Origin: Bacteroidales bacterium UBA4347 | Lineage (GTDB): Bacteria; Bacteroidota; Bacteroidia; Bacteroidales; P3 | Assembly: GCA_002394185.1 (NCBI GenBank) | Contig: DGTB01000085.1 | Location: forward strand, 1-45,730 | Length of the DNA: 45,730 bases | Reading direction: 5' to 3' | Part shown: positions 596 to 45,552 of the stretch, one piece after another | Numbering within the stretch: position 1 is the first letter of the stretch | Layout: every line of letters starts with the position of its first letter | The notes under the pieces: model-generated | What the model saw: the letters and a program-made list of their open reading frames with translations, nothing else | What the model was told of the DNA's origin: nothing | The model's database searches: none | Translations under genes and position numbers: made by a program

Positions 596-630
596 CCATA
601 ACCCATAACCCATAACCCATAACCATTAAG
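596..630 (-). repeat. Heptamer array, 4x CCATAAC plus CATTAAG (minus strand GGTTATG)
   Basis: Direct reading: ccataac x4 then cattaag, 35 nt. Sits between the -7 box at 643..650 and the kal start at 541, so it is predicted to be in the 5' leader. Confidence 0.9.
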
Positions 631-642
631 GTTTCACGCTTG

Positions 643-650
643 CAAAGATA
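643..650 (-). promoter_or_regulatory. Bacteroidota -7 promoter box TAtcTTTG
   Basis: Reverse complement of caaagata is TATCTTTG, matching the TAnnTTTG consensus, about 100 nt upstream of the kal start. Confidence 0.45.
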
Positions 651-717
651 CACAAATCCAGCCATCTGGCCAAATCTTTTTTTTTACCCTGTCGCCAAAA
701 CGGCGTATCTGATGAAT

Positions 718-1416
718 CTATAGGACACCCATAAACTTGCGGTCGTAGGAGCGACGGGCGTGGGGATAGACTGATGTGTGGGTGCCGGTGTGGATGGTGT
801 CGTAGCCATGAGTGTCGAGGAAGGAGAAAAGTTCTTCGTGAGTAGCAAAACGGGCATCGAACCAACCGTCGAACCAATCACCAAAGGTGGTGTTTTCCTG
901 TATGGTGTCAGCCAGTATCTCCTTTGGTATGGTGATGTCATAGGTGCTACTGCCGTAGTCGTTCCCGTCCTTATAGTCGGACAGGCTGGTACCGCTGCGC
1001 ACAATGGCGAGTTCCGTATGATGGATGGTGTCGATGCTGATATAGCCCCAATCGCGCAGCTGCAAAAGGGCGGCGGCGCTGTTGGCCTCCCGGTCACTGC
1101 CGGGATGATGGATCATCTCGAGGCTGAGCACGTAGTCGCCTTTGAAGAGGGCTGGTTTATCCTTTTTGACCCAGCCTTCGGACATCATCTGCAGAAACAG
1201 AGCCAGACCCGTCACATCGCCGTACATGCGAACCGTGTCGCCGAGGGAGGTGTCTTTGTGGAAGGCATCGGCTTGCTGCTGGGAAACGAGGCGCTTGCCA
1301 TCGACGGTGAGGGTGTAGGCCTCGGTCTCCACATGGTAGTGGGTGGTCCTGTTCTCGCGAAAACAGGATGTAAGCAGCAACGCCATTGTACAAAGCATCA
1401 TCAGGGTCTTTGGCAT
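718..1416 (-). CDS. Lipoprotein of unknown function
   Basis: 232-aa ORF with signal peptide and lipobox (MALLLTSC). No recognisable domain. Confidence 0.7.
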   Translation of the reverse strand: MPKTLMMLCTMALLLTSCFRENRTTHYHVETEAYTLTVDGKRLVSQQQADAFHKDTSLGDTVRMYGDVTGLALFLQMMSEGWVKKDKPALFKGDYVLSLEMIHHPGSDREANSAAALLQLRDWGYISIDTIHHTELAIVRSGTSLSDYKDGNDYGSSTYDITIPKEILADTIQENTTFGDWFDGWFDARFATHEELFSFLDTHGYDTIHTGTHTSVYPHARRSYDRKFMGVL

Positions 1417-1430
1417 GATGTTTTTTTATT

Positions 1431-1474
1431 AAAAAAAAACGGGACTGCTACCAGCGTTTTGACAGCAATCCCGT
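1431..1474 (-). terminator. Rho-independent terminator after the CoA-transferase gene
   Basis: Minus strand: 11-bp stem ACGGGAUUGCU/AGCAGUCCCGU (one G-U) followed by U9. Confidence 0.6.
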
Positions 1475-1499
1475 TTTGACGCATTAACGCATTGGCGCG

Positions 1500-8484: not shown

Positions 8485-8491
8485 TCTGATT

Positions 8492-8567
8492 GTGTTAATG
8501 TGTTAATTCGTTAATGTGTTAGTGGCTTGCGCAAGCATCACTCACGCATTTACACATTTACGCATTC
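8492..8567. repeat. Imperfect long hairpin built from GTTAATG/GTTAGTG-type words
   Basis: gtgttaatgtgttaattcgttaatgtgttagtg, then the perfect palindrome GCTTGCGCAAGC (8525..8536), then atcactcacgcatttacacatttacgcattc. Lies between the stop of 8558..8977 and the metG start. Confidence 0.75.
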
Positions 8568-8977
8568 TCCTCTTTCTTCTCTTCCTCGTCGAGGGTTATT
8601 TTCCCGGCGTTGAGAAGGATGTTGTACCAAGCGAAGAGCTTCTTGGCGTCGGAGGCGTGGACGCGGTCGCGGTCGTAGTCGGGCAGCACGGCCTCGAGGA
8701 GGGCGAAGAGCTCCTTGCCGTCGGCCTTCTTGGGGTCGAAAGCGGTGGCCTTGCCGTCGAGGTGCTTGAAGATGGCCTGCATGACGTCCTCCAGGGGGCG
8801 CTCATCGGTGTCGGTGAAAATACGGATCTCGCCCAGCGAGCTGATGCGGTCGTTCTTGAAGACGGGGTACTTCTGACCCGTGACGAGGTTTTTAACGATG
8901 GCACCGCCTTTGGTCTGCGACACCAGTTCGCTCAGGTCCGGCTTGCCGGAAATCACTAAGATGCTTGTCAAATCCAT
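8558..8977 (-). CDS. Conserved Bacteroidota protein (DUF5606-like)
   Basis: 139 aa. MDLTSILVISGKPDL...LVTGQKYPVF...IFT matches my recollection of DUF5606. Acidic C-terminal tail. Confidence 0.55.
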   Translation of the reverse strand: MDLTSILVISGKPDLSELVSQTKGGAIVKNLVTGQKYPVFKNDRISSLGEIRIFTDTDERPLEDVMQAIFKHLDGKATAFDPKKADGKELFALLEAVLPDYDRDRVHASDAKKLFAWYNILLNAGKITLDEEEKKEENA

Positions 8978-9049: not shown

Positions 9050-9889
9050 TTAAATCTTCTTAATATGGTATTGGCGGAGGCCCTCGATGGGGTCGGCCAA
9101 CACCCCTTTGATTTCAAGGCCATGGTTCTTGGCGACAGGCTCAATGAGTGTTTTGATGCGCGCAGCAAACCCTCCAACAAGATAGAGCACCATGCAATGG
9201 GAAATCTTTAACAGATGATCCAACTGATAGTTATACCACTCTTCAAGACTGAAAAGAATCTCCGACGAGCAGTAGTCATCGTTAATATGTTCTACAGCAA
9301 ACCTCGCCAGCGACGCCAGGAACCGGTTGGCGTTGGGCTGATGGTAGACAGCGTCAAGAAATTCCTCCCTCGTCATTGGATAAGCATCATGGAATCTGGA
9401 AGATATATTCCTTGGCATACACCCCGAAAGGTAGTCTTGCAGCAGGCGACGACCTACATGGTTGGCCGACCCCTCATCGCCCAGAATGTATCCCGTGCTG
9501 GGCGCCTGATAGGCAATCTGGCGGCCGTCATAGTAGCAGGCGTTGCTGCCCGTGCCGAGGATGCCCACCAGGGCAGGCTGGTCGCCAGCGGTAGCACGGC
9601 AGGCGGCGAGCATGTCGGTCTCGACGTGTATATCGCTTGTTCCAAAGGCTTTAGTGAGCCATGCAGCCACCTTCCTGCGCTGGGCAGGAAGGCCGCAGCC
9701 GGCACCGTAGAAGTGAATTGAAAATTGAAAATTGAGAATTGGAAGTTGCTGGCGCACGGCGGCACAGGCGGCCATGAACTGCTCCTCGCTGGTGAAGTGG
9801 GGGTTCAAACCCTCGGTAACTATCATGTTGCCAGACTCCACCTCCATCCACGTGGTCTTGGTGCTACCGCTGTCGGCTATCAAGATCAT
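9050..9889 (-). CDS. BadF/BadG/BcrA/BcrD-type ATPase, N-acetylglucosamine kinase-like
   Basis: [12 protein letters not shown]...FYGAGC...GILGTGSN...GYILGDEGS motifs. The ATG at 9889 overlaps the pyrD stop (ATGA). The upstream R/H-rich extension in the track is rejected. Confidence 0.75.
9713..9747 (+). repeat. C-free heptamer array inside the nagK-like CDS
   Basis: gtgaatt gaaaatt gaaaatt gagaatt ggaagtt. The coding (minus) strand reads [11 protein letters not shown] just before the FYGAGC motif. Confidence 0.9.
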
Positions 9890-11558: not shown

Positions 11559-11680
11559 AATAAACTGTTTTTCCTATTGATAACGCTCCCCGGCAAAAAA
11601 TATTGTGGCGCTGGATTTTTTTAGGGACGATTTGACACTTTCACCTTTCCCACGGCCTTTCATCCCCCGTTTTTCGCCCT

Positions 11681-11752
11681 ATCATCTCCTACGATGGTAG
11701 GAGTTGGTAAGGAGTTGATAAGGACTTGGTAAGGGGTTGGTAAGGGGATAAT
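11681..11752 (+). repeat. Dispersed element, copy 1: 7-bp hairpin plus 11-mer tandem array
   Basis: atcatCTCCTACgatgGTAGGAGttg gtaaggagttg ataaggacttg gtaaggggttg gtaagggg. The core catctcctacRatggtaggagttgg recurs inverted at 19762..19843. Confidence 0.85.
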
Positions 11753-16753: not shown

Positions 16754-16767
16754 CGTTCATCTGCTGT

Positions 16768-16830
16768 GAAAATCGAAAGTGGAAAGTGGATGCCTTGCCT
16801 GAACGGCCAGCACTTCCACTTTCCACTTCC
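16768..16830. repeat. Hairpin built from GAAAGTG heptamers
   Basis: Perfect 14-bp stem AAGTGGAAAGTGGA (16777..16790) / TCCACTTTCCACTT (16815..16828) with a 24-nt loop, between the ppiD-like stop and the M23 start. Confidence 0.85.
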
Positions 16831-16852
16831 CATTGTCAACTATTCTTTCTGT

Positions 16853-19761: not shown

Positions 19762-19843
19762 ATCTCCTTATCATCTCCTTACCAACTCCCACCCAACTCC
19801 TACCCAACTCCTACCATTGTAGGAGATGGTTGGTCGATGGTAA
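19762..19843 (-). repeat. Dispersed element, copy 2 (inverted relative to copy 1)
   Basis: 11-mers ccttaccaact cccacccaact cctacccaact, then the hairpin CTCCTAC catt GTAGGAG (19808..19825). Lies in the divergent cdd / Y-family polymerase spacer. Confidence 0.85.
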
Positions 19844-19933: not shown

Positions 19934-21430
19934 ATGCAGGCCAACCGCACATATATTGCCATCGACCTCAAGTCGTTCTACGCCTCGGTAGAGTGCGTGG
20001 AGCGGGGCCTCGACCCATTGACTACCAATCTGGTGGTGGCCGACGCCAGCCGAACGGAGAAAACCATCTGCCTGGCAGTAACGCCGTCGCTCAAGGCCTA
20101 TGGTATCGGCGGTCGTGCGCGGTTGTTCGAGGTAGTGCAGCGCGTGCGGCAGGTCAACGCCCAGCGGCGGCGCAATGCCCCTGGCTATCAGCTGCAGGGC
20201 GAGGCCACCGACAGTCGTGACCTGGCTGCGCACCCCGAAAAGGCCCTGGGCTATCTGGTGGCGCCGCCTCGCATGGCCTACTATATTGATTATAGCGCCC
20301 GTATCTACAGCATATACCTGAAATACATAGCCCCGGAGGACATCCATGTCTACTCGGTCGACGAGGTGTTCATGGACGTCACCAACTACCTGGGAACATA
20401 CAAGATAACGTCCCATGAACTGGCTCGTCGCATGATTGCTCATGTGCTGCGTGAAACCGGCATCACGGCTACCGCCGGCATCGGCACCAACCTCTACCTT
20501 TGCAAGGTAGCTATGGACATCGTTGCCAAGCATATACCCGCCGACAAAGACGGCGTGCGCATCGCCGAGCTGGACGAAATGAGCTACCGCCGTCTGCTGT
20601 GGAGCCACCGGCCGCTGACGGACTTCTGGCGTGTCGGTCACGGCATTGCGCACAAGCTTGAGGCATGCGGTATGCACACCATGGGCGACGTAGCCAGACA
20701 ATCTATTGATAACGAATCACTACTGTACAAACTCTTCGGTGTCAACGCCGAGCTTCTCATCGACCATGCCTGGGGTTGGGAGCCGTGCACCATGAAGGCC
20801 ATCAAAAGCTACCGTCCGCGCAGCAACTCCTTCAGTTCCGGCCAGGTGCTCTCCGAACCCTATACCTTCAAAAAAGCGCGCGTAGTAATGCGCGAAATGG
20901 CCGACGCCATGGCCCTCAAACTGGTGAGCCTCCGACTGGTGACCAACCAGATTGGCATCTACGTCAACTATGACGCAGAAAGCTTGAAACAAGGTACTTA
21001 CACCGGTGATATTGTGGACGACTACTATGGTCGCAACGTACCCAAACCAGCTCACGCCGGTGCCAACCTCCCCCACCCCACTTCCTCAGCGCGTATCCTC
21101 ACCGAGGTTGTAGTGCAACTCTTTGACCAGTGTGTCAATCCAAAGCTCCTTGTCCGTCGGCTTACCATCACTGTCAATCAAGTGATTGATGAAAACGACA
21201 GCAGTGTCACCCACCCGGTGACGCAACTCGACATGTTCACCGACTATGAACAATTGGAACGCGAGCAGAAGGCCGTGAAGTCCGCCCTCGACAAGGAGCG
21301 GCGCATGCAAGAGGCCGTGCTCAATATCAAGCGCAAGTTCAACAAGAACGCCATTTTCAAAGGCATGGACCTCGAGGAGGGGGCCACCGCCCGCGAGCGC
21401 AACAGCCAGATAGGAGGGCACAAGGCGTAG
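19934..21430 (+). CDS. Y-family DNA polymerase (UvrX/ImpB-like translesion polymerase)
   Basis: YIAIDLKSFYASVECVERGLDP...SVDEVFMDVT motifs; 498 aa. Confidence 0.8.
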   Translation: MQANRTYIAIDLKSFYASVECVERGLDPLTTNLVVADASRTEKTICLAVTPSLKAYGIGGRARLFEVVQRVRQVNAQRRRNAPGYQLQGEATDSRDLAAHPEKALGYLVAPPRMAYYIDYSARIYSIYLKYIAPEDIHVYSVDEVFMDVTNYLGTYKITSHELARRMIAHVLRETGITATAGIGTNLYLCKVAMDIVAKHIPADKDGVRIAELDEMSYRRLLWSHRPLTDFWRVGHGIAHKLEACGMHTMGDVARQSIDNESLLYKLFGVNAELLIDHAWGWEPCTMKAIKSYRPRSNSFSSGQVLSEPYTFKKARVVMREMADAMALKLVSLRLVTNQIGIYVNYDAESLKQGTYTGDIVDDYYGRNVPKPAHAGANLPHPTSSARILTEVVVQLFDQCVNPKLLVRRLTITVNQVIDENDSSVTHPVTQLDMFTDYEQLEREQKAVKSALDKERRMQEAVLNIKRKFNKNAIFKGMDLEEGATARERNSQIGGHKA

Positions 21431-21463
21431 TTAAGAGTTATGAATTAAGAGTTTAGAGTTATG
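21429..21463 (+). repeat. C-free heptamer array filling the polymerase/yolD-like spacer
   Basis: agttaag agttatg aattaag agtttag agttatg. The first unit overlaps the polymerase TAG stop and the last unit supplies the ATG at 21461. Confidence 0.9.
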
Positions 21464-22681: not shown

Positions 22682-23134
22682 ATGGAAGAAAAGAACATAA
22701 TAGAAATCAAGAATAAACGCGCCGCATACGAGTACTTCCTCATGGACGAGTACACGGCAGGTATCGTGCTGATGGGCAGCGAGATAAAGAGCATCCGCGA
22801 GGGCAAGGCCAACCTGAGCGACGCCTGGTGCACCTTCGTGGGCAACGAGCTGTTTGTGCGCGACATGCACATCTCCGAGTACAAGTTCGGCTCCTACTGG
22901 GGCCACCAGGCCAAGCGCGACCGCAAGCTGTTGCTCAACCGTCGCGAGCTGCGCAAGCTGCAGAACAAAATCAAGGAGCGCGGCTACACCATCGTGCCCG
23001 TGCTGCTTTTCGTCAACCCCCAGGGCTATGCCAAGCTCACCATCGCCCTCGCCAAGGGTAAACACCACTACGACAAGCGCGAAACCATCAAGGCCAAAGA
23101 CTCGCGTCGCGACATGGAAAGGGAGTTGGCATAG
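22682..23134 (+). CDS. smpB: SsrA-binding protein
   Basis: [11 protein letters not shown]...[20 protein letters not shown]...[13 protein letters not shown]. Confidence 0.9.
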
Positions 23135-23138
23135 CGGA

Positions 23139-23172
23139 GTAGTTAAGTAGACAGTAGTTAAGTAGTTAAGAG
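23139..23172 (+). repeat. GTAGTTAA-type tandem array upstream of aspartate kinase
   Basis: gtagttaa gtagaca gtagttaa gtagttaa gagag. One C in 34 nt. Ends 2 nt before the ATG at 23175. Confidence 0.85.
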
Positions 23173-23174
23173 AG

Positions 23175-24500
23175 ATGAAGGTTTTTAAGTTTGGAGGAGC
23201 ATCGGTCAATAGCGCCGACGCCGTGCGCAACATGGCGCATATCGTGCAAACACACTTGGAATCAGAACCTTTGGTGGTTGTGGTCTCCGCCATGGGCAAG
23301 ACCACCAACCTGCTGGAGAAACTCGTGCCCGGAAGTCCGGAGTGCGAAACGCAAGGCCAGGCCCTGCGCAAGCAGTTGGAGGACTACCACCTTGGCATTG
23401 CCAACGGACTGATTCCAAACGACAAAGAGCTCGTTGGCAAGATTCAGTCCCTGCTGCACGAACTGGACGAGACCATCGCGACGCTGCAGCCCCTGTCGGA
23501 ACATTACAACTACAACTACGACCAGGTTGTCTCCTTCGGCGAACTCATCTCCACCACCATCATCGCGCACTACCTTAACCACCATGGAATCAACACCCAA
23601 TGGGCCGATGCGCGCAAGCTTGTTGTCACCGACAACCACTTCCGCGAAGGGCGTGTGGATTGGACGGAGACGGCCGAGAGGTGGAGGGCGATGAGCGAGC
23701 AATGGAGTACGGAAGGCGGCGCACCGCAGGTGTTGCTGACGCAGGGCTTCATTGCCGGCGCCAAAGAGGAGGATGACAACCTGCAGTTCTCCATCTTCAA
23801 CCTCCAGTTCTCCACCACGACCCTGGGCCGCGAGGGCTCCGACTACAGCGCCGCCATCTTGGCCTACTGCCTTGGGGCCGAAAGCGTTACCATCTGGAAG
23901 GATGTGCCGGGTTTCCTCAATGCCGACCCCAAATTCTTCCCGGACACGGTCAAAATCAACGAGATACCCTACGACGAAGCCATCGAGCTGGCCTACTATG
24001 GCGCTTCGGTCATCCACCCCAAGACCGTCAAACCCCTCCAGAACATGGGCATTCCGCTCTACATCCGCTCTTTTATCCACCCTGAGGCCAAGGGCTCCGT
24101 TATCGGCAACTATCATATTATCAGCCCCGAAACACCGCTGTACATCTTCCGTAACAACCAGATACTGCTCTCCGTCTACCCCCGCGACTACTCCTTCATT
24201 GCCGAGGACAATCTGCAGGTCATCTTCGGCATTCTCAGCAAGATAGGTGTGCGCGTGAACCTGATGCAGAACTCTGCCTTGAGTTTCTCCATCTGCGTGG
24301 ACAACAACCCACAGCTCATCGGAAGGTTGATTGAGGAGTTAAAGAGCATGTTCCGTGTGCGTTACAACGAGAACCTGCAGCTTGTCACCATCCGTTACTA
24401 CACGCAGCAGGTCATCGACCGCATCGTTGCCGGCCGCCCCATCCTCTTGGAGCAGCGCAGCCGCCTCACCGAGCAGATTGTTGTCCCACTGGACAAATAA
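23175..24500 (+). CDS. lysC: Aspartate kinase
   Basis: KVFKFGGASV...VVVSAMGKTT...LGREGSDYSAA, with C-terminal ACT-like repeats. Confidence 0.85.
   Translation: MKVFKFGGASVNSADAVRNMAHIVQTHLESEPLVVVVSAMGKTTNLLEKLVPGSPECETQGQALRKQLEDYHLGIANGLIPNDKELVGKIQSLLHELDETIATLQPLSEHYNYNYDQVVSFGELISTTIIAHYLNHHGINTQWADARKLVVTDNHFREGRVDWTETAERWRAMSEQWSTEGGAPQVLLTQGFIAGAKEEDDNLQFSIFNLQFSTTTLGREGSDYSAAILAYCLGAESVTIWKDVPGFLNADPKFFPDTVKINEIPYDEAIELAYYGASVIHPKTVKPLQNMGIPLYIRSFIHPEAKGSVIGNYHIISPETPLYIFRNNQILLSVYPRDYSFIAEDNLQVIFGILSKIGVRVNLMQNSALSFSICVDNNPQLIGRLIEELKSMFRVRYNENLQLVTIRYYTQQVIDRIVAGRPILLEQRSRLTEQIVVPLDK
23778..23812 (-). repeat. Heptamer-type array inside aspartate kinase
   Basis: Coding strand aacctgc agttctc catcttc aacctcc agttctc encodes NLQFSIFNLQFS, just before the conserved TTLGREGSDYSAA. 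More diverged than the other arrays (3 C on the G-rich strand). Confidence 0.7.
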
Positions 24501-28314: not shown

Positions 28315-29366
28315 CCTTTCGCAAGTTGTAGGAAGGCGTCGCGCACCTCGTTGTCAGACACCGTTATGTCGATGACCGCAGCGCCGGGCTCCTGCAGCAG
28401 CACACAGCGCAGCTCCCCGTCGGCGTTCTTCTTGTCCTGGTGCATCAGGGGAAGCATCTGTTCGATGTCCTTCAAATTGAAAGTGGGTAGTGGGTAGTGG
28501 GTAGTGAGTAGTTGCCCGTTAAGCCACTGGGAGTATGCATCATAGACCTCTTCGGCAAGGCCAAGTTTCTTCACCGAGAGGTACATCGCCACCCGCATGC
28601 CGATGCCTACTGCGATGCCGTGAGGCAGGTGGCGGTAGGCCTCGATGGCGTGGCCGAAGGTGTGGCCAAAATTGAGTATATGCCTGATTCCATGGTCGTA
28701 AGGGTCGTTCCTGACGATACGGTTCTTGATGCGGGCCACCTCCTTCAGTTGAGAATTGAAAACCGAAGATCGGGAATCGTCCACAAGCGTCTGATACAGA
28801 GCGGCATTTGTCACCGCCGCCGTCTTCACCATCTCCATCTGCCCGTTAACGAATTCCTCCCGCGGGAGCGTGTCCAGAAACCCTGGTTCTATGCATATTA
28901 GACTCGCCTGATGGAAGTGGCCTATGCTGTTCTTGATGCCGCCGAAATTGATGGCCGTCTTGCCGCCTATCGAGGCGTCTACCATCGCCAGCAGCGTCGT
29001 CGGCACGTTGATATGGCGGATGCCGCGCTTGAACCCCGCCGCCACATATCCGCCCAGGTCGCAGACACATCCGCCCCCGAGGTTGACGATGACGCTGCCC
29101 GTGTCGGCGCCGCTCTCCAGCAGCGTCTGCCATACCTGCGCCGCCACCTCCAGGCTCTTGCATTCCTCGCCCGCCGGCACCTCGATGAACTCGGCCTCTT
29201 CCAGCGGCCCCACGCTGGTCACCAGCATCGCAAGACATTGCTGGAACGTATTCTCGTCCAGCAGGATAAAGTATCTGGCATCGCGCCACTCCTCCTTGCC
29301 CAGCTCGTCACCGAGCGCCCGGAGGCCACCATAGAGTATTTTCCCATATCTTTCCATATCAGACAT
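28311..29366 (-). CDS. aroB: 3-dehydroquinate synthase
   Basis: GGGCVCDLGGYVAAGFKRGIRHINVPTTLLAMVDASIGGKT...NFGHTFGHAIE. Start at 29366 (MSDMERYG); 29357 is also possible. The longer tracked ORF is rejected. Confidence 0.85.
   Translation of the reverse strand: MSDMERYGKILYGGLRALGDELGKEEWRDARYFILLDENTFQQCLAMLVTSVGPLEEAEFIEVPAGEECKSLEVAAQVWQTLLESGADTGSVIVNLGGGCVCDLGGYVAAGFKRGIRHINVPTTLLAMVDASIGGKTAINFGGIKNSIGHFHQASLICIEPGFLDTLPREEFVNGQMEMVKTAAVTNAALYQTLVDDSRSSVFNSQLKEVARIKNRIVRNDPYDHGIRHILNFGHTFGHAIEAYRHLPHGIAVGIGMRVAMYLSVKKLGLAEEVYDAYSQWLNGQLLTTHYPLPTFNLKDIEQMLPLMHQDKKNADGELRCVLLQEPGAAVIDITVSDNEVRDAFLQLAKG
28479..28513 (+). repeat. C-free heptamer array inside aroB
   Basis: gaaagtg ggtagtg ggtagtg ggtagtg agtagtt. 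The coding (minus) strand reads QLLTTHYPLPTFN. Confidence 0.9.
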
Positions 29367-32070: not shown

Positions 32071-32176
32071 CACCCTCTCCCCGCGCCACCGCAGCCCTCG
32101 ACCCTTGCCGCCAACCCGATTCCGGCATACAAGTAGTACCCAACTCCGTGACAACGAGCAGATAACTCCCTTTGGG

Positions 32177-32209
32177 TTTCGGTTGAGTTTCGGTTCGGTT
32201 TCGGTCTCC
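32177..32209. repeat. 3 x 11-nt tandem repeat TTTCGGTnnnn
   Basis: tttcggttgag tttcggttcgg tttcggtctcc. Confidence 0.85.
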
Positions 32210-33396: not shown

Positions 33397-33909
33397 ATGA
33401 ATACAAAAAAGAATATACGACGGTTTTGGTTGTGGGTAGGCATACTCTTGCTCGTCGACCTCGCGGTCATTACCCTTTGGAAGCGCTGGTACTGGTTCTT
33501 CCCCTCGCGCGAGGTCAGCGAAGTCTACACCCGCTATGCCGGCAACGAGGACTTCAACGTCGTCTTCCTCAAGGACTTCAAAATCAACGACACCGTCTTT
33601 GTCGACGTCACCCTCCTGGAAGCCAAAAACGACTCCTCCTGGGTCCGTATTAAAGACGATTTCAACATTACACCCATCCCCGACGAAATACTGTCTGTGG
33701 CCACAAATGATATCGTCAGTTTCTGGTATGCTCCCAAGAAAGACTACTCCCTCCCTATGGATTCATGTCTAACCAACAATGATATTATAGCAATCTCATA
33801 CCTGAAGAGAGAGATTGCTGTTTTCCACATTGAATCAGAAAAACAAATCAGACGCATTCTTGAATATCAAATATCAAATAACAAAAACCAAACAAATGGA
33901 AATGAATAA
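33397..33909 (+). CDS. Membrane-anchored hypothetical protein
   Basis: 170 aa with an N-terminal TM segment (FWLWVGILLLVDLAVITLW). Lower GC than the core genes. Confidence 0.6.
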   Translation: MNTKKNIRRFWLWVGILLLVDLAVITLWKRWYWFFPSREVSEVYTRYAGNEDFNVVFLKDFKINDTVFVDVTLLEAKNDSSWVRIKDDFNITPIPDEILSVATNDIVSFWYAPKKDYSLPMDSCLTNNDIIAISYLKREIAVFHIESEKQIRRILEYQISNNKNQTNGNE

Positions 33910-34594: not shown

Positions 34595-35908
34595 ATGAGA
34601 CATCTAAACAAACTTGCCCTCGCCGCCTGCCTCCTCTTGTCCTATGGCATCGCGCTGGGACAGACCGGGCAGGGACTGCCAAGTCCGGCATTCCATTGGA
34701 AGTGCCCGTCCGCCGATTCGGCGCTGAACTTCCATCCGGCGACCACCGCCCCACTCCTTTTCGACAGCATCCCCTATGCCGAAGACTACACCGTTGTGGT
34801 GGTCTATAAGCCCGTCGTGGACACCGAAGCCACTGTGTGGCAGCTCGTCTTCGCCGACAGCATTGGTCGTGGGCTGACCACCGAGCGTATCCTCTCCGAC
34901 AGCACAGCCATCCGCTTTGCTGAACATACCGACCGCAAACCGGTGATCCATACCTTGCGCCAGTCCGCCCCCGACTCCTCTTCTGCCTACGCCAGCCTGT
35001 CTGTCGGCGACGGAAACATCAAGGTCTCCGAGGTGCTGTACTTCAATCACCGTCTTGGCAACGCCGTCCTACGCAGGGTGCAGTCCATCCTGGCCATCCG
35101 TTATGGCATCACCCTCGGCCCTGTCGACTATATTGGAGTCAATGGCCACCGTGTATGGCAACATCGGCTCGACAGTGCCGTGTTCCACCACCGCATCACG
35201 GGTATTGGCAGCGACACCTCCCTCCATCAATTGTGCAGCCGCTCCGAAATGGACGGCTCCGTCGTCACCCTCTCTGCCGACAGCCTCCCGCAAGGGGCTT
35301 ACCTTCTCATTGGCGACAATGATGCACCTCTGACATTCCTGCAGGAGGCCTCTGACATTGAAACGCTCGCCCGCCAATGGCGCGTTCAGAGTTCAGGTAC
35401 AGAGGATGTCGCGTTTTCTCTTGCATTTGATACGCGGAGTATTCCCGTTCCCACCGACAGCCTTGTGCTGTTACTCGATGGTGGCATCATCCTCCCATCG
35501 GTTGTGACTGCCAACGAAGTACGTTTCAATAATCTATGGCTCTCGTCCGACACCTGTACCTTTACCCTCGCTCGCGGTGCCTTCTTGTGGCAGCTGGCGC
35601 AATCCGGCTCCAAGGGCGCCAAAGGTCACAGTGGCAAAGAGTATGACGAACATGAGAAAGTTTCAATTTTCAATTCTCAATTTTCACTTTATCCGAATCC
35701 CACCACTGGCCATTTCAACATCGAGGTGTCCGGTGCCCGTCAGGTACAGGTAACGATATATAACCTACAGGGTAAAGTAATCGCCACCTACGGCGACAAT
35801 AACCGTGACCACTATTGCTTCGAAGGTTCCCTGCCAACAGGCAATACCTACTTCGCCACCATCGCCACCGAGAGTGGCAGTCAGACCATAAAACTCATCG
35901 TAAAGTAA
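34595..35908 (+). CDS. Secreted protein with a T9SS C-terminal sorting domain
   Basis: Signal peptide. C-terminus LYPNPTTGHFNIEV...VTIYNLQGKVI...YFATIATESGSQTIKLIVK is a typical Por/T9SS CTD. The passenger domain is unassigned. Confidence 0.8.
   Translation: MRHLNKLALAACLLLSYGIALGQTGQGLPSPAFHWKCPSADSALNFHPATTAPLLFDSIPYAEDYTVVVVYKPVVDTEATVWQLVFADSIGRGLTTERILSDSTAIRFAEHTDRKPVIHTLRQSAPDSSSAYASLSVGDGNIKVSEVLYFNHRLGNAVLRRVQSILAIRYGITLGPVDYIGVNGHRVWQHRLDSAVFHHRITGIGSDTSLHQLCSRSEMDGSVVTLSADSLPQGAYLLIGDNDAPLTFLQEASDIETLARQWRVQSSGTEDVAFSLAFDTRSIPVPTDSLVLLLDGGIILPSVVTANEVRFNNLWLSSDTCTFTLARGAFLWQLAQSGSKGAKGHSGKEYDEHEKVSIFNSQFSLYPNPTTGHFNIEVSGARQVQVTIYNLQGKVIATYGDNNRDHYCFEGSLPTGNTYFATIATESGSQTIKLIVK
35658..35692 (-). 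repeat. Heptamer array in the passenger-CTD linker of the T9SS protein
   Basis: Coding strand aagtttc aattttc aattctc aattttc actttat encodes KVSIFNSQFSL. The reverse complement is gaaaatt/gagaatt, the same words as at 9713..9747. Confidence 0.9.
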
Positions 35909-39868: not shown

Positions 39869-39881
39869 AATATCCCGCAAA

Positions 39882-40445: not shown

Positions 40446-40565
40446 TAATGGCAACAACCAAAATGGCAAACAATTGTCTTTGCATAGGGTATTCTAACTA
40501 TCAGAATATTATAAACAATGCTCCATTCGGCACAAAAAACCAACACAAAAAACTGCACGCAAACC

Positions 40566-41369: not shown

Positions 41370-41375
41370 AAAGTC

Positions 41376-41855: not shown

Positions 41856-41943
41856 TTATAACCTCTCCTAACAGAGAATACAAAGTTCACAAATAGTTGA
41901 ACACAGGAACTCATAAAATAGAATGGGTAAATCGATTAAAACC

Positions 41944-42204
41944 ATGCGTTTTCATCCCTTCGTTTTCACCGGCAAAGAGAAGGATGAGGAAACGGGCTAC
42001 GGCTACTTCGGAGCCCGCTATATGGACCACGAGCTGACGACCATGTGGTTGAGCGTTGACCCGATGGCAGACAAGTACCCATCTATTAGTCCCTATGCGT
42101 ATTGTGCGTGGAATCCTGTGAAGTTGGTTGACCCGGATGGACGTAAAATACATTTATATAATGATCTAACTGTAGAAAAAGTAAAAAAATACATGAGAGA
42201 ATAG
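41944..42204 (+). pseudogene. Vestigial orphan Rhs cassette (core end plus a 20-aa tail)
   Basis: MRFHPFVFTGKEKDEETG...DPDG, then only RKIHLYNDLTVEKVKKYMRE and a stop. Multiple stops follow in all frames. Confidence 0.7.
41965..42141 (+). repeat. Rhs core-end homology block, copy C
   Basis: By hand count, 23 mismatches in 177 nt versus copy B, with one M-to-T change. Confidence 0.9.
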
Positions 42205-42299
42205 AAACCTGCTAGGCAATGTGACTAGAGAAAGTGCGGGTATAGAAAAAGTGAAATATCAAAATATTGCTCAACGAATATTAAATAGAACAGAAAGAA

Positions 42300-42783
42300 A
42301 TGGAAACGACCACCAATATTAAAGCGCTTTTGATAATCTGCATGCTATTTGCAAGTGGATATGGTCATGGGCAAAACAGCGTTTCATTCGAATAATTGGG
42401 ATTTTGTATTTAAAAAAGGAGACTCGTATTGTTATAAAATGATAGACTATACAAAGAACTCTGACTCCAACGTTGATTCAATTAGAGTTTTATATTATTT
42501 TGATGGAGACAGTGTTGTGAGAGTAGACAATTATCAGTCTCGCACAACTTATTTGTACCACAATACAGCGAACTCCCAGTATGGTAATAATTGTACGATA
42601 ATTGAATGGAAAGATGGAGAATGTAATTATAAATTTAGTCTAGGGCATGAGAGAATAGAAAAGAGAATGATCTTTGCATTTATCGGAATGCATCCTACTG
42701 ACAATATGAAAGTTGAAGATGACTACAACAATTGCATTAAATCTTGTGTACAACACAAGGAGATGATAATATTCCATCAATAG
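42300..42783 (+). pseudogene. Frameshifted putative immunity gene of the vestigial cassette
   Basis: The ATG at 42300 encodes a signal peptide (METTTNIKALLIICMLFASGYGHGQ) that hits TAA at 42393. The body (…NNWDFVFKKGDSYCY… to 42783) is open in another frame from 42349. Confidence 0.55.
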
Positions 42784-42970
42784 ACAAAGAAAAAAGAGAC
42801 AAAAAAACGCATTAAACTGGGGCGGAGAACTGGCACCAGTCACAACGGAAAAGAATAGATAAAACAAGGCTATTCCGTTATTGTTTAAAAATACAAAGGC
42901 GAACAGCGACTGACGAAACCAAAAATCGCAATACACTGCAATTTTATTTTGCCATTATCAAAAAAAAATG

Positions 42971-42978
42971 TATTTTTG
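42971..42978 (+). promoter_or_regulatory. -7 box TAttTTTG for the hipBST-like operon
   Basis: TATTTTTG lies 28 nt upstream of the ATG at 43006. Confidence 0.5.
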
Positions 42979-43005
42979 CATCGAAAATCGCAACATGTTG
43001 AGACT

Positions 43006-43227
43006 ATGGATCTGAAAGAAATTGGACAGGCTATCAAGTCACGACGGGCATCGCTCGGTGTGAACCAACGCACGGTGGCGGAACTCTCTGGAGTCGCCGT
43101 AAACACACTTGTCGCCATCGAACGTGGCGAAGGTAACCCACAAATAACCACCCTGATGGATATTCTCAACACCATCGGTCTCCAGGTTGAGGTGAAACCC
43201 AAAATAATGGAGTATGAGACAATGTAA
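43006..43227 (+). CDS. hipB: XRE-family HTH protein, HipB-like
   Basis: MDLKEIGQAIKSRRASLGVNQRTVAELSGVAVNTLVAIERGEGNP is a classic Cro/C1 HTH. Overlaps the next gene by 14 nt. Confidence 0.8.
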   Translation: MDLKEIGQAIKSRRASLGVNQRTVAELSGVAVNTLVAIERGEGNPQITTLMDILNTIGLQVEVKPKIMEYETM

Positions 43228-43525
43228 GGTGTATGTGAATGACTTGGAAGCCGGTTTGTTGACAGAAGAAGACAGCGGACGGTATAATTTCTCCTATTCA
43301 GTCGGTTATACCGGTAAAGCCGTCTGTCTGTCCATGCCAGTGAGGAACGAGGCATACACCTCGGACCATCTGTTTCCATTTTTTTTCAACATGCTCTCAG
43401 AGGGCGCGAACCGCAAGATACAGTCGCAGCTGTTACATATCGACGAAAATGACGACTTCGGCATCCTGCTGGCCACCGCTCAAACAGACACCATCGGAAC
43501 GGTAACAATCAAACCAGTGCAATGA
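43214..43525 (+). CDS. hipS: HipA N-terminal subdomain as a stand-alone protein, HipS-like
   Basis: 103 aa. VYVNDLEAGLL...LSMPV...FPFFFNMLSEG...DTIGTVTIKP parallels the HipA N-terminal domain (VG.L...LSLSLP...FF.NLLP...D.VGA.T). Confidence 0.75.
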   Translation: MRQCKVYVNDLEAGLLTEEDSGRYNFSYSVGYTGKAVCLSMPVRNEAYTSDHLFPFFFNMLSEGANRKIQSQLLHIDENDDFGILLATAQTDTIGTVTIKPVQ

Positions 43526-44529
43526 TGGAAGAATTGAGATTTTGCCCTTCGACACTGAAAGAAGGTTTTAATACATATTCTCCCGAGGCCTGCCGCAGTC
43601 TGTTCGGCGGGAAGCAAGTGTCGCATATACTGAATTTTGACAGCCCTAACAACGCCAATGCCGACTCGACCGACTATGCAACCCATATTGGACGCATCTC
43701 GCTTTCCGGTGTTCAGCCCAAGGGGGCGCTTGTGTTGCGAAACAGAGTGCTGTCGAAACCAGAAAAAGGAGAACGGGGACGGTATATTTTGAAACCTGCA
43801 CCGGTATCCTATGCATTGCTGGAGCGCAAGTATTGTCCCGCCAACGAACACCTTACCATGCAGATGGCTTCACAAGCCTACGGCATAGAGACCGCCCGCA
43901 ATGCGCTCTGCTTTTTTCGCGATGGAGAGGCCGCGTATCTCACCAAACGGTTTGATGTGGCTCCCGATGGAACAAAATATCCGCAGGAAGACTTCGCTTC
44001 TTTGGCCGGATTGACCAGGGCCAATGGAGGAAGTGACTACAAATACAACATATTGAGCTACGAAGATTGTGCCGATATCATTCGTCGCTATGTTCGTGCT
44101 GCACAGGTGGACCTGCTGCGATTCTTCCGGGTGGTGCTGTTCAACTACATCACACTGAATGATGATGCCCACCTGAAAAACTTCTCCCTCATCGACCGTG
44201 GAGATGGAGACTACCGTCTCGCTCCAGCCTACGACCTCATCAATACAAGCCTGCATCTGCACCGACCTCACATCTTCGCGTTGGAAAAGGGCCTTTTCAA
44301 AGAAGGGATGCGCATGTCCGACACCCATACCGTGGACAGGGGCGACTTCGAAGAATTCGGACATAGAATCGGTTTGCCCAACCGGACCATCAACCGTGAA
44401 CTCGACACTTTCGCAAAGGAATCTCCTCTCGCCTTGAAGTTGATAGCGCATTCATTCTTGTCGGAGAAACTGAAGAAAGACTACCGGTTGTCGTATCAGT
44501 ATCGATGCTTCACATTATCATCCCATTAA
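43522..44529 (+). CDS. hipT: HipA-family Ser/Thr kinase lacking the N-terminal subdomain, HipT-like toxin
   Basis: 335 aa with Gly-rich loop ISLSGVQPK, catalytic NDDAHLKNFSL and APAYDLINT. ATGA overlap with the hipS-like gene. Confidence 0.8.
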   Translation: MMEELRFCPSTLKEGFNTYSPEACRSLFGGKQVSHILNFDSPNNANADSTDYATHIGRISLSGVQPKGALVLRNRVLSKPEKGERGRYILKPAPVSYALLERKYCPANEHLTMQMASQAYGIETARNALCFFRDGEAAYLTKRFDVAPDGTKYPQEDFASLAGLTRANGGSDYKYNILSYEDCADIIRRYVRAAQVDLLRFFRVVLFNYITLNDDAHLKNFSLIDRGDGDYRLAPAYDLINTSLHLHRPHIFALEKGLFKEGMRMSDTHTVDRGDFEEFGHRIGLPNRTINRELDTFAKESPLALKLIAHSFLSEKLKKDYRLSYQYRCFTLSSH

Positions 44530-44924
44530 CATAATAACATTAACGAGAATCTACCTACCACAATGAAGAAATAATGGAACAGCTGGCGTACTTAAATTGG
44601 CCAATGACAATAAACTTGAAGAATTGTTTATATGATGACACATATGAAATGGACCCTAAATACTTACTGACGTGACAAAACGGGAAATATGGGTTCACAG
44701 ATTTCAGAGTAAAACGATTTTTTCATGGAATGAAGACTATAAGATTATTTATTGCGTTTTTTGTCCAACAAATGAAGATGTAGAAGAGGTTTATTTTATT
44801 CCTCAGTTTGAGTCTGTGATATAAAATTTGAAACAGTGGGAGATGGCAGGGCGTTCGTCGGGATGAAAAACGCCGATTTTACGTTTATTAGGAAAACAGG
44901 GGCGGCATTACAGGCAGAAGCCGG

Positions 44925-45509
44925 TCAGCCTGCATTCACCACGGCGGCGATGGCGGTGACGATAAGGATCAGGGCCGAAGCCACCATCCAGCGGCGGGGG
45001 CGTAGCTTGACATGCTGGCGGCCGTACATGATGCCGAGATAGGAGAGCAGGAATACCGCCACCAGCATGGGCCACAGGGCGCCGTGCAGATGAGCGGCCA
45101 ACGAAGCCACGAAACCGGCTCCCAGGCCCAGCAAAAAGCCGTTGATGCCCGCGGCCACGGTGAAGAGCAGCACCCGCAGCGTGCCGGCATTGAGGTCGAA
45201 GGAGGCGGGCTTGGTCTTGCGGCCCATATAAGGCCACAGCATCTTGGCGGCCACGAAGAGGGACATTCCCAGGAAGATAAAGGCATTGGGGCGTGCAAAA
45301 GCCTCGGGGTCGCCGGGCAACTCGAAACGGAGCATATTGCCCAGCGAGATGCCCACACAGAACAGGGCCGCCTGGACAACGGCCATAGTGAGCGAGATGA
45401 GGAGTCCCGACGACAGCGGCACAGGGGCGGCGTCGGCACAACGTTGCATCAGCAGCATGAAGCTGATTCCAAAGGCAATGGCGATTACGATGAAGGATAC
45501 TATGGACAT
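44925..45509 (-). CDS. mntP: Manganese efflux pump MntP family
   Basis: 194 aa, six hydrophobic segments and two-fold internal symmetry typical of MntP/DUF204. Confidence 0.75.
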   Translation of the reverse strand: MSIVSFIVIAIAFGISFMLLMQRCADAAPVPLSSGLLISLTMAVVQAALFCVGISLGNMLRFELPGDPEAFARPNAFIFLGMSLFVAAKMLWPYMGRKTKPASFDLNAGTLRVLLFTVAAGINGFLLGLGAGFVASLAAHLHGALWPMLVAVFLLSYLGIMYGRQHVKLRPRRWMVASALILIVTAIAAVVNAG

Positions 45510-45517
45510 TTTTGGAA

Positions 45518-45552
45518 GGGTTATGGGTTATGGGTTATAGGTTATAGGTTAA
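45518..45552 (+). repeat. C-free heptamer array GGGTTAT x3 plus AGGTTAT plus AGGTTAA
   Basis: Direct reading. Begins 9 nt upstream of the mntP start and uses the same word as 596..630, but in the opposite orientation relative to the adjacent gene. Confidence 0.9.

Follow-up and report, generated by a model that had tools for sequence, protein, structure and literature searches.

Heptamer-type simple-sequence repeats have been described in several bacterial lineages. They include the LSSR5-11 repeats (Mrazek 2007, summarised in PMC4679880), the GGGNATC repeats of Xanthomonas and Nostoc (PMC4692102), the TAACTGA repeats of Beggiatoaceae (PMC4679880) and the TTTTGAA repeats of Nostoc (bioRxiv 10.1101/2022.06.06.494920). 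In the account of Mrazek 2007 that is given in PMC4679880, heptamers are the commonest long simple-sequence repeat and polymerase slippage is the idea advanced for them.

We analysed a stretch of 45,730 nucleotides (the window) from Bacteroidales bacterium UBA4347, in which the original prediction had seen eight heptamer arrays, taken as one family of about 35-nt modules and assigned to no named repeat class. All eight coordinates hold the sequence described, and their placement upstream of starts, between genes and inside coding sequences was upheld. TRF recovers tandem arrays at seven of the eight loci, at 596-624 (period 7, CCATAAC x4.1, 100% matches), 9716-9741 (x3.7), 21429-21461 (x4.7), 28482-28512 (x4.4), 35661-35690 (x4.3), 45518-45551 (x4.9) and 23138-23170 (x4.2), the last with a period of 8 rather than 7, while the eighth, at 23778, is a 21-nt coding repeat. 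Arrays of like kind, including 8-nt and 11-nt units, that the original prediction had overlooked lie at 8491, 8547, 11695, 16775/16814, 19762/19782, 32172, 33863 and 45558. Rather than one family, the arrays form a class with many unit types and favoured periods of 7, 8 and 11. They match the described heptamer-type simple-sequence repeats (PMC4679880, PMC4692102, bioRxiv 10.1101/2022.06.06.494920), most likely made by slippage, and are, as predicted, neither CRISPR nor REP/BIME-type palindromes.

Similar counts in shuffled sequence had been named as a possible refutation. Counting arrays of period 5-13, not divisible by 3 and with at least 2.9 copies, we found 14 in the window against a mean of 0.54 and a maximum of 3 in 100 dinucleotide shuffles within 300-nt blocks; at a TRF score of at least 44, 12 arrays were observed against 0.09. 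An assembly artefact, the other doubt raised, is ruled out by the recurrence of identical arrays in independent ENA, NCBI, JGI and Logan assemblies. The predicted C counts on the G-rich strand (0 at four loci, 1 at three, 3 at one) were close to our recount of 0 at five, 1 at two and 3 at 23778. Their C-freeness is far less improbable than it had seemed, because a single C-free 7-nt unit suffices for 35 nt. In clade sequence 37% of random intergenic and 20% of random coding 7-mers lack G or C, compared with 12/18 intergenic and 6/7 coding array units, these being small counts of independent loci with crude gene calls outside the window. The bias to G- or C-free units is real, but only about 2-4 fold over chance.

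Head-to-tail arrays with units of 7, 8 or 11 nt, usually in 4-5 copies, are numerous in the host lineage, an uncultured Bacteroidales clade of rumen and gut. Arrays of period 7 number 117 per Mb in clade loci versus 17 in other Bacteroidota (7-fold), those of period 8 62 versus 16, and those of period 11 57 versus 0.8 (70-fold); clade loci hold no array of period 10, and periods 5 and 6 are never favoured either. The unit vocabulary is limited and recurrent, and pyrimidine-rich on the G-free strand. Arrays evolve in concert and change copy number between strains in whole units, a polymorphism that the original prediction had proposed looking for. One such series comes from the leader between KsgA and a 194-aa gene (45518..45551, minus strand), where (GGGTTAT)x4.9 on the plus strand, (ATAACCC)n when read as mRNA, stops 8 nt short of the ATG (45509). 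There are 5 copies in the window, 7 in L127, 8 in L128 and 32 in L126/L090, all adjoining an identical protein; in other strains the entire spacer is taken up by the array, beginning with the TAA of KsgA, and two contigs break inside the array. Nearby, (AATTAGTTT)x2.4 (45558..45579, strand not assigned) lies in the 179-nt tail of the window, a segment missing from contig NODE_248, which is identical in all other respects.

The arrays occupy four contexts, namely intercistronic spacers, leaders before starts, both arms of hairpins and tolerant loops of housekeeping proteins. A perfect, C-free (mRNA sense) (GGTTATG)x4.1 (596..624, minus strand) lies in the spacer between the stop of a 232-aa gene (718) and the start of a 4HBT-like gene (541), 55 nt upstream of the latter. 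On the plus strand, (AGTTAAG/AGTTATG)x4.7 (21429..21461) constitutes the whole 30-nt spacer from the DinB TAG (21428-21430) to the ATG of a 70-aa gene (21461) and places stops in all three frames; its orthologue in L010 is (GGTTATG)x4.9. Also on the plus strand, an 11-mer array, TTGGGTTTCGG x3.1 (32172..32205), lies in the divergent intergenic region upstream of an ECF sigma factor gene, and (AATATCA)x3.3 (33863..33885), G-free in its sense strand, is found at the 3' end of a 170-aa gene just upstream of the next ATG (33896). Where an array abuts or overlaps an upstream stop codon, the unit contains a stop in 7/8 cases, and for pyrK, DUF5606 and KsgA alike the stop is part of the opening unit of the array. 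Array leaders that directly precede a start codon mostly lack G in the mRNA. The predicted MFE is 0 in 8/11 arrays, compared with -6 to -12 kcal/mol for length-matched genome windows; for the region -40..+20 it is -3.7 and -6.4 in the two G-rich array leaders, against a median of -4.65.

The spacer between SmpB and aspartate kinase (23132..23174, plus strand) is phased on the SmpB stop codon and reads TAGCGGAG TAGTTAAG TAGACAG TAGTTAAG TAGTTAAG AGAG. L004, L005 and L010 keep this module, irregular unit included, and L007 has a looser version of it. The TAGTTAAG module also occurs at the pyrK-pyrD junction in L094, L095, L105 and L106, and TAGTTAAG TAGACAG TAGTTAAG TAGTTAAG ACAA is nearly identical at the two unrelated junctions, in species with about 72% identity between their aspartate kinases. 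The 8,8,7,8 pattern is also retained in L113, where the bases have changed in concert. At pyrK-pyrD, 12 loci have an empty junction, and the others together hold at least 5 different modules or hairpins.

Hairpins with periodic arms are common across the clade. One of them (8485..8575, minus strand) is the whole spacer between DUF5606 and MetRS, and both of its arms are 8-mer arrays (TGTGTTAA x3.9 at 8491-8521 and CATTTACA x2.5 at 8547-8566). Read as mRNA, the first arm begins at the DUF5606 stop (AAT GCG TAA ATGTG TAA...) and the second, (TTAACACA)n, stops 6 nt short of the MetRS ATG; here there is a one-unit difference between strains (+8/+9 nt at 8557). The long hairpin between a SurA-like and an M23 gene (16775..16832, minus strand) has heptamer arms, GAAAGTG / CACTTTC, with an MFE of -41 kcal/mol over 16754-16852, and at the same position L004 and L005 have an ordinary hairpin without periodicity. 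An 11-mer array, TGGTAAGGAGT x4.7 on the plus strand (11680..11745, minus-strand feature), ends in a short hairpin (CTCCTAC-GATG-GTAGGAG) and is homologous, in opposite orientation, to 19762..19830 (plus strand) in the divergent cdd/dinB region. There, ATCTCCTTACC x2.5 and CCAACTCCTAC x3.1 are accompanied by the terminal hairpin CTCCTACCATTGTAGGAG; the region holds different arrays in L005 (CTATATAAGAA x5 and AGGTGGG x4.9) and none in L004.

Arrays inside coding sequences overlay pre-existing loops and leave length unchanged, and the PDB homologues place those of two proteins, a kinase-like protein and 3-dehydroquinate synthase, in ordinary loops. The MurNAc/GlcNAc-kinase-like (BadF-type ATPase) gene holds a 4-unit array (9713..9747, minus strand; sense CTTCCAA TTCTCAA TTTTCAA TTTTCAA TTCAC) that encodes the 13 residues directly preceding the FYGAGCG motif. 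Four units stand at the same codons in 21 orthologues, all of identical length, and the units differ between them. Unit identity is 0.80 within an array, 0.61 between orthologues at the same position and 0.74 in the flanks, a within-array value reached in 0/2000 permutations, so the units have evolved in concert within this coding sequence. Outgroup genes have no array, and in L093 and L110 a GC-rich palindromic element is inserted in frame. In 3-dehydroquinate synthase (28479..28512, minus strand) (GGGTAGT)x4.4 on the plus strand encodes LLTTHYPLPTF. At the same codons and length L004 and L005 have a perfect (AAATTGA)x4.3, in which TTTCAAT x4 (sense) extends out of a 3'-edge seed; in L010 the stretch is 7-periodic but degenerate, and in the window it is a homogenised CACTACC array. 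A (TTTCAAT)x4.3 array (35658..35690, plus strand) encodes KVSIFNSQFSL at the start of the Por_Secre_tail domain of a DUF8202/T9SS-sorting-domain protein. The 21-nt repeat in the aspartate kinase gene (23778..23819, plus strand; NLQFSIF NLQFSTT) is not a 7-nt array in its DNA. It belongs to a 13-aa insertion (..NLQFSIFNLQFS..) that the window shares with L004 and L005 alone. Since (TTTCAAT)n encodes exactly the peptide of this repeat, in which third positions have become G/C, the repeat is probably the relic of an in-frame array expansion whose codons have since drifted.

The arrays may be likened to the cyanobacterial STRR heptamers alongside the LSSR5-11 repeats. As reported in PMC4679880, the latter (Mrazek, Guo and Shah 2007) show lineage-specific over-representation with heptamers commonest, occur in non-pathogens and are ascribed to a tendency to slippage expansion by polymerase rather than to a specific function, as we suggest here; in what we found of these surveys there is no account of the present clade, stop-codon phasing, periodic-arm hairpins or family-level concerted evolution of an in-frame array. 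With the GGGAATC / GGGGAYT repeats of Xanthomonas and Nostoc (Rehm et al. 2015, PMC4692102) the arrays share a 7-nt unit with a G-rich, C-poor strand, a tendency towards some four units per array and, rarely, long alleles (reaching 26 units in that system and 32 in ours), a strong bias to non-coding DNA between co-oriented ORFs, inverted pairs, no link to surface genes or mobile elements and no assigned function. In both, the G-rich strand is the non-coding one just upstream of ORFs, or the coding one at or overlapping stops. The Rehm repeats have one dominant unit per genome, whereas the present clade has dozens of units in three periods (7, 8, 11) and its arrays also persist inside conserved coding sequences. 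The TAACTGA repeats of marine Beggiatoaceae, some cyanobacteria and five Bacteroidetes (MacGregor 2015, PMC4679880) are likewise heptamer arrays, of 2-6 copies and occasionally very long (43 there), mostly immediately upstream of start codons and in Shine-Dalgarno-poor contexts. They too carry stop codons that close all frames in forward orientation, have no predicted RNA structure and, within ORFs, are confined to the orientation that lacks stops. Essentially a single motif makes up that system, unlike the diverse vocabulary seen here, and TAACTGA itself occurs in the window as 2 singletons with no tandem copy.

We consider it moderately probable that the arrays are heptamer-class simple-sequence repeats that arose by slipped-strand duplication and conversion and were filtered by context; they are neither a mobile element nor a single dedicated motif. 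Arrays would be both created and kept homogeneous when the nascent strand realigns out of register in replication or repair, through slipped-strand duplication or deletion and conversion between neighbouring units. Loci sharing a unit probably also convert one another, since 30 nt of shared array is enough homology. Selection would then set the sites and orientations in which arrays survive. At the end of a gene, the upstream protein would be unaffected by a duplication that takes in the stop codon, and this would explain why intercistronic arrays begin at the stop and carry one in every unit (TAG-TTAAG, TAA-ATGCG, A-TAA-CCC); because 7 and 8 are not multiples of 3, stops would fall in all three frames and the next start would be pushed away. 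Before start codons, the arrays that persist would mostly be G-free in the mRNA and without predicted structure, which fits translation in Bacteroidota because it proceeds without Shine-Dalgarno pairing. Within genes, arrays would survive only in tolerant loops, mostly with a G-free sense strand that avoids stop codons and with the unit number fixed by the reading frame, and in hairpins both arms would become periodic. Of the roles first suggested, replication-slippage products and structure-free RNA spacers are the two favoured by the evidence. Slippage alone does not explain the near-identical irregular TAGTTAAG module at SmpB-aspartate kinase and pyrK-pyrD across species, nor the 8,8,7,8 pattern that L113 keeps through concerted base changes, and a generic slippage model does not predict the period spectrum or the recurrent units. 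Not all array-bearing leaders are less structured than other leaders, and the proposed mechanism would require an array within an essential-looking gene to be homogenised without a frameshifted intermediate.

The arrays could instead be mRNA cis-elements, multimeric sites for a single-strand-binding protein (S1 or cold-shock-domain, with a footprint of about 7 nt per domain) that recruits or positions ribosomes on Shine-Dalgarno-less messages, slippage being the route by which sites are gained. Cold-shock domains have a 6-7-nt binding site. The exact filling of stop-to-start spacers, the limited pyrimidine-rich vocabulary, the three-letter composition with its predicted unstructured RNA and the strong conservation of the irregular TAGTTAAG module across species and at unrelated junctions are consistent with this reading, as are the like proposals for TAACTGA repeats (PMC4679880) and for Nostoc heptamers near start codons (bioRxiv 10.1101/2022.06.06.494920), and the dependence of Bacteroidetes, which do not use Shine-Dalgarno sequences, on unstructured leaders (PMC3155529, PMC6847099). 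We nevertheless regard it as rather unlikely, as units vary widely between arrays and orthologous spacers (AGTTAAG vs GGTTATG behind DinB), both strand orientations occur upstream of starts, 5 to 32 copies are tolerated after KsgA, close relatives manage without any spacer at many junctions, and the same arrays sit in coding sequences, in hairpin arms and at places far from any start. An origin as parts of small non-autonomous mobile or copy-paste elements inserting at gene junctions seems improbable. Like REP/BIME, REPIN, BOX and MITE repeats, the arrays are short, dispersed, intergenic, often hairpin-forming and variably present at junctions such as pyrK-pyrD; the same composite modules recur at non-orthologous junctions, twice within 3 kb in L099/L100, and the palindromic element in the kinase-like gene of L093 and L110 is an in-frame insertion. 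Unlike such elements, they are simple tandem repeats inside, whose units change gradually, in concert and in place. Filled and empty junctions, when compared, showed no target-site duplication and no conserved termini, and the arrays in coding sequences substitute sequence without adding length, so the footprints of an unknown insertion process first suggested are not supported. No transposase was found near arrays within the window, and Rehm et al. found no mobile-element association either (PMC4692102).

A G-quadruplex or i-motif element, comparable to the GGGNATC repeats, is very improbable. Units such as GGGTTAT, GGGTAGT and AGGTGGG do exist, the 32-unit allele would hold many G3 tracts, and in favouring about four units, as in strand and location, the arrays resemble those of PMC4692102. 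A regex scan, however, found no canonical G4 motif at any window array and none with four G3 tracts, and most units (GAAAATT, AGTTAAG, GTAGTTAA, TGTGTTAA, TTTCAAT) have no G run; as a general explanation the idea is excluded by these non-GGG arrays. There is hardly more to be said for phase-variation (contingency) switches acting through 7-nt frameshifts or changes in promoter spacing. Heptamer repeats control the hmw adhesin genes of Haemophilus, units of 7 or 8 nt in coding sequences would shift the frame upon slippage, and copy number does vary in the KsgA-194-aa gene leader. Against this, the genes concerned are housekeeping ones (dehydroquinate synthase, aspartate kinase, MetRS, sugar kinase), all 21 equal-length kinase-like arrays are in frame with constant unit number, and no frameshifted allele was found in any assembly; PMC4692102 concluded likewise for other heptamer repeats.

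Collectively, slippage and conversion under a context filter offer the best explanation of most arrays in this clade as filler from mutational bias, with a minority apparently conserved. Given the few conserved modules that recur at unrelated junctions, some cis function in translation is conceivable, and the TAGTTAAG module, judged by its sequence conservation, has probably been co-opted as an intercistronic translation spacer.

The window (45,730 bp, 54% G+C) comes from an uncultured Bacteroidales recorded solely from rumen and gut metagenome assemblies, and the nearest genome records, RUG and UBA MAGs, carry the title 'uncultured Bacteroidales bacterium'. Across it, Tandem Repeats Finder (TRF) reported head-to-tail arrays of periods 7, 8 and 11 with 3-5 copies. 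The original prediction had listed heptamer arrays at 596, 9713, 21429, 23139, 23778, 28479, 35658 and 45518. The content described was present in the window sequence at all eight loci, and seven were reported by TRF, with 3.7-4.9 copies per array, whereas 23778 gave no TRF array; six of the seven have period 7, but the array at 23138 has period 8. TRF also reported unlisted 8-mer arrays at 8491 and 8547, heptamer arrays at 16775/16814 and 33863, 11-mer arrays at 11695, 19762/19782 and 32172, and a 9-mer array at 45558. We counted 14 arrays whose period lies between 5 and 13 and is not a multiple of three; dinucleotide shuffles inside 300-nt blocks of the window averaged 0.54 such arrays and never exceeded 3. 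For stronger arrays the count was 12, compared with 0.09; shuffled sequence thus contains far fewer arrays, as had been anticipated. Contigs identical or nearly identical to the window are present in ENA, NCBI and Logan assemblies, and an assembly artefact is ruled out because independent assemblies hold the same arrays in common. Over the whole window, Rfam at gathering thresholds gave 0 matches and a tRNA/tmRNA scan found none.

Earlier reports of heptamer repeats come from cyanobacteria, xanthomonads, Burkholderia and Beggiatoaceae, with neither origin nor function agreed. Long simple-sequence repeats (SSRs) with 5-11-nt units (LSSR5-11) are abundant in scattered lineages, heptamers being commonest, and polymerase slippage has been proposed for them, according to the summary that PMC4679880 gives of work by Mrazek and colleagues. 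The GGGNATC heptamers that Rehm et al. found in Xanthomonas and Nostoc prefer four units and lie between co-oriented ORFs; these differ among close relatives and are without known function (PMC4692102). TTTTGAA heptamers lie close to start codons in Nostoc (bioRxiv 10.1101/2022.06.06.494920), and MacGregor found TAACTGA arrays directly 5' of start codons, with stops in all frames, no predicted structure and occasionally very great length, in a few Bacteroidetes among others (PMC4679880). The literature we searched yielded no description of such arrays in Bacteroidales.

Loci from relatives (598 kb, selected on one or other of two marker proteins at 57-99% identity) were compared with 1.18 Mb of other Bacteroidota. 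Period 7 occurred at 117 per Mb in the clade and 17 per Mb in other Bacteroidota, period 8 at 62 and 16 per Mb, and period 11 at 57 and 0.8 per Mb, a 70-fold clade enrichment. Period 10 (0 per Mb in the clade) and periods 5, 6, 12 and 13 showed no enrichment in this comparison, and period 7 outnumbered periods 8, 11 and 9 in the clade loci. Over-representation in one lineage with heptamers commonest is characteristic of LSSR5-11, as is a change in copy number by whole units between close strains, which we also observed. The KsgA spacer (45518-45551) has 5, 7, 8 or 32 ATAACCC units by strain, with an identical downstream protein, and two contigs terminate within its array; the array at 8557 differs by +8/+9 nt, i.e. 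one unit. The spacer after DinB (21429-21461) has AGTTAAG-type units in the window and GGTTATG-type units in the related locus L010, and arrays have been gained or lost outright at 16775 and 19762 between the window and loci L004 and L005. Collectively, the arrays show the syndrome of described heptamer-type SSRs, a class that the original prediction had not recognised.

Other identities fit less well. The distinction from CRISPR stands, since the units are 7-11 nt, contiguous and without spacers (CRISPR has ~24-48-nt repeats with unique spacers of similar length). G-quadruplexes fail as a general explanation: GGG is missing from most units, and 0 window arrays match (G3+ N1-7)x4. The motif of at least four G3 tracts would be matched only by the 32-unit allele of L090. 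TAACTGA was also rejected, with two singletons and 0 tandem copies in the window.

The last 179 nt of the window (45552-45730), right after the GGGTTAT array, have no match in contig NODE_248, which is elsewhere 100% identical and runs on into KsgA at this point; the tail reflects a rearrangement or insertion at the array, or else a chimeric join that the assembler made through the repeat.

Spacers that are wholly array separate DUF5606 from MetRS (8485-8575), DinB from a 70-aa gene (21429-21461), SmpB from aspartate kinase (23132-23174) and KsgA from a 194-aa gene (45518-45551, and its alleles). Arrays that abut an upstream gene start at its stop codon and repeat it in each unit: GCG TAG-TTAAG AGTTATG... 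after DinB, TAG-CGGAG TAG-TTAAG TAG-ACAG TAG-TTAAG TAG-TTAAG after SmpB, AAT GCG TAA-ATGTG TAA-ATGCG after DUF5606 and AAA TAA-CCCA TAA-CCC... after KsgA. The unit contains a stop codon in 7 of the 8 arrays abutting or overlapping a stop. Tandem duplication that includes the stop keeps the upstream protein unchanged and hence offers a simple neutral route to stop-phased arrays, and with period 7 or 8 the repeated stop lands in all three frames. Further arrays lie in longer intergenic regions (596, 11695, 19762 and 32172), and both arms of the hairpins at 16754-16852 (MFE -41 kcal/mol) and in the MetRS leader are arrays. Relatives have many more such hairpins, some with T and A runs alongside, like bidirectional terminators. 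A scan of the window for sigma-70 promoters and intrinsic terminators gave nothing specific to arrays; its rules for loop and tail exclude the periodic hairpins, and ordinary GC-rich terminators are found elsewhere in the window.

Near starts the G-rich strand is non-coding in 3 of 4 arrays, and near stops only it is coding in 2 of 2; both counts point the same way as the strand rule of Rehm et al., which accompanies a bias towards non-coding DNA close to ORF ends, on few arrays and with crude gene calls outside the window. The gene caller used there recovered 40 of 47 stops and just 27 exact starts, and because starts were poorly recovered we limited its use to the coding/intergenic split and orientation, excluding start distances. 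Across the window no simple rule relates array strand to gene or replication direction, since gene orientation switches near 19.8 kb and the G-rich strands are on the + strand to either side of that point.

The near-absence of C on one strand, central to the original prediction, is partly explained by the stop codons, since TAA, TAG and TGA contain no C. Furthermore, because an array is a repeated unit, 35 nt without C needs merely 7 nt without C. Among random 7-mers of the clade, 37% of intergenic and 20% of coding ones lack G or lack C; the corresponding figures for period-7 arrays, with one array per independent locus, are 12/18 and 6/7, and for period-11 arrays 7/15 as against 17.5% expected. 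The bias is therefore present, but its size is 2-4 fold rather than astronomical. Arrays holding both G and C are largely members of inverted pairs.

Coding arrays occur in a MurNAc/GlcNAc-kinase-like BadF-type ATPase (9713), 3-dehydroquinate synthase (28479), a T9SS-sorted protein (35658) and the 3' end of a 170-aa gene (33863); the sense strand is G-free in all, and that strand avoids TAG and TGA. In the kinase-like gene a 4-unit array lies immediately 5' of a FYGAGCG motif, both in the window and in ~25 orthologues from metagenomes, with protein identity as low as 57%; 21 of these orthologues show no length difference. The array is absent from outgroups at ≤49% identity. Its unit varies by species (TTTTCAA, TTCACAA, CTTTCCA, TTCTCAA, CTTTCAC, CTTCCAA and others). 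Identity is 0.80 among units within an array, compared with 0.61 for same-position units between orthologues and 0.74 for flanking codons, and the within-array value was reached in 0 of 2000 permutations. At this site an ordinary loop of equal length is seen in the Bacteroides thetaiotaomicron homologue, whose structure is known. Because coding-sequence arrays overlay existing loops without adding length, the earlier idea of insertion footprints was discarded. Phase-variable contingency loci were likewise rejected, the coding arrays lying in housekeeping genes, in frame and with fixed unit number in the 21 equal-length orthologues.

Dehydroquinate synthase shows three states at the same codons, at constant length: a degenerate 7-periodic stretch in L010 (CCACTGC TTACTAT CCACTAC CCACTTT), a homogenised CACTACC array in the window, and a perfect (TTTCAAT)x4 in L004 and L005. 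The flanks of these two share 96% identity with the window, and their array extends from a TTTCAATTTG seed at its 3' edge. Aspartate kinase carries a 13-aa insertion, NLQFSIFNLQFS, in the window, L004 and L005 only. It matches the translation of (TTTCAAT)n with third positions shifted to G/C, so that this locus, the 'most diverged' of those first listed, is probably an old in-frame array expansion.

Several relatives differ locally in the kinase-like gene. In L104 a 24-nt in-frame duplication (FQFSIYFY) spans the array end, which shows that arrays can seed small protein insertions. L003 shares ~99% identity with the window as a whole, yet over a short stretch that includes the array (window 9650-9800) it diverges strongly and resembles L112-type alleles, which suggests recombination between lineages rather than local hypermutation. 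An in-frame GC-rich palindrome of ~57 nt (GCCTCACCCCTGCCCCTCTCC...GGAGAGGGGCAGGGGTGAGGC) replaces or interrupts the array in L093 (~8840-8900) and L110 and looks like a separate repeat family of MITE-like character; a comparable GC-rich palindrome is found where the window starts (40-118).

Other parts of the window also vary or stand out. An 876-nt 'intergenic' gap in the gene calls (5548-6423) lies within a 403-aa ORF (5149-6360, minus strand) and contains repeats of 42 nt (x2.9) and 24 nt (x3.2); the GC-rich sequence resembles that of a low-complexity secreted protein, and strain L001 lacks 42 nt (3 + 39) here. L085 has an additional 1.3-kb AAA_14 / DUF4143 ATPase gene (14444-15742) between the GNAT and 216-aa genes, absent from the window (27589/27590). 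At 37202-44529 small genes of unknown function come after an RHS-repeat protein, together with a HipB/HipA toxin-antitoxin module; the intergenic regions around them are long and AT-rich, and the stretch is possibly a polymorphic-toxin island.

Some arrays recur as composite modules. The module TAGTTAAG TAGACAG TAGTTAAG TAGTTAAG ACAA, irregular unit included, is near-identical at the SmpB-aspartate kinase junction in several species (the window, L004, L005 and L010 among them), and also at the pyrK-pyrD junction in four other loci. L113 keeps the 8,8,7,8 pattern with concerted base changes (AAGGAGAT) and forms one hairpin arm from it, and the MetRS-type hairpin occurs twice inside 3 kb in L099 and L100. 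The window 11-mer elements at 11680-11745 and 19762-19830 are homologous, with a terminal hairpin in common. Their family (CCAACTCCTAC / CTCCTTACCAA, also in L006, L091 and L107) terminates in the hairpin CTCCTACCATYGTAGGAG, and its unit is similar to the anti-Shine-Dalgarno region (CTCCTTA); TATA-rich units occur in other 11-mer hairpins (L005, L091, L093 and L110). The pyrK and pyrD genes overlap (ATGTTAA) in the window (10779-10785) and nine other loci and nearly abut (-1 nt) in two more; elsewhere they are separated by a 14-nt spacer, the TAGTTAAG module, the MetRS-type hairpin, 8-mer-arm hairpins or larger palindromes. This junction is a hot spot, of 0, 14, 40-47, 89, 103, 128-130 or 160-174 nt in loci L092-L118, filled in different relatives by unrelated arrays, hairpins and palindromes.

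Like mobile elements, the TAGTTAAG module and the MetRS-type hairpin occur as dispersed copies with conserved sequence. Nevertheless, across 26 loci at the pyrK-pyrD junction there was no target-site duplication and there were no defined termini, and in these two respects the arrays differ from mobile intergenic elements of REP, REPIN or MITE type, in line with the earlier contrast to REP/BIME-type palindromes. The pyrK-pyrD modules begin at the stop codon itself, and no transposase (RAYT or IS) is present among the called genes of the window. Simple slippage fits the recurring modules poorly; they call for selection acting on the exact sequence or else for copying from locus to locus, for which we infer ectopic conversion via ~30 nt of shared array. 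As the most likely explanation we lean towards a lineage-specific process of slipped-strand duplication plus conversion, whose products are then sorted by selection according to context. Duplication and conversion would generate the arrays, and selection would keep spacers phased on stop codons, leaders free of G, protein-loop strands free of stops, and hairpin arms that pair.

The main rival explanation gives the arrays, or a conserved subset of them, a role in translation as sites recognised by a single-strand-binding protein. Written as RNA, 8 of 11 arrays are predicted to have an MFE of 0, compared with averages of -6 to -12 kcal/mol for equal-length genome windows. Bacteroidetes start translation without Shine-Dalgarno pairing and rely on weak structure near the start (PMC3155529, PMC6847099), so an unstructured array is a permissive leader and not necessarily a required one. 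The initiation region is predicted to be essentially unfolded in the G-free leaders of MetRS (-0.6) and the 194-aa gene (0.0); two G-rich array leaders gave -3.7 and -6.4 against a median of -4.65, and array leaders are thus not uniformly less structured than others by predicted MFE. We consider it quite improbable that a dedicated templated process overwrites ~30 nt with tandem copies of a 7-8-nt seed at unchanged length and copies composite modules between unrelated junctions, the stop-phased three-letter arrays being specific landing or termination-reinitiation sites for an OB-fold RNA-binding protein that organises operons without Shine-Dalgarno sequences. If that were true, the arrays would be a genome-wide cis-regulatory code and not slippage debris.

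Whichever explanation applies, the arrays have practical effects, with assemblies broken at arrays, spacers that vary by strain and small insertions in housekeeping proteins. The clade also supplies comparative material that earlier heptamer cases lacked, namely an in-frame array at the same codons in >20 species with its unit changing in concert, unit replacement at constant length, arrays starting at stops and hairpins periodic in both arms, and with it the choice between mutational bias and function becomes testable.
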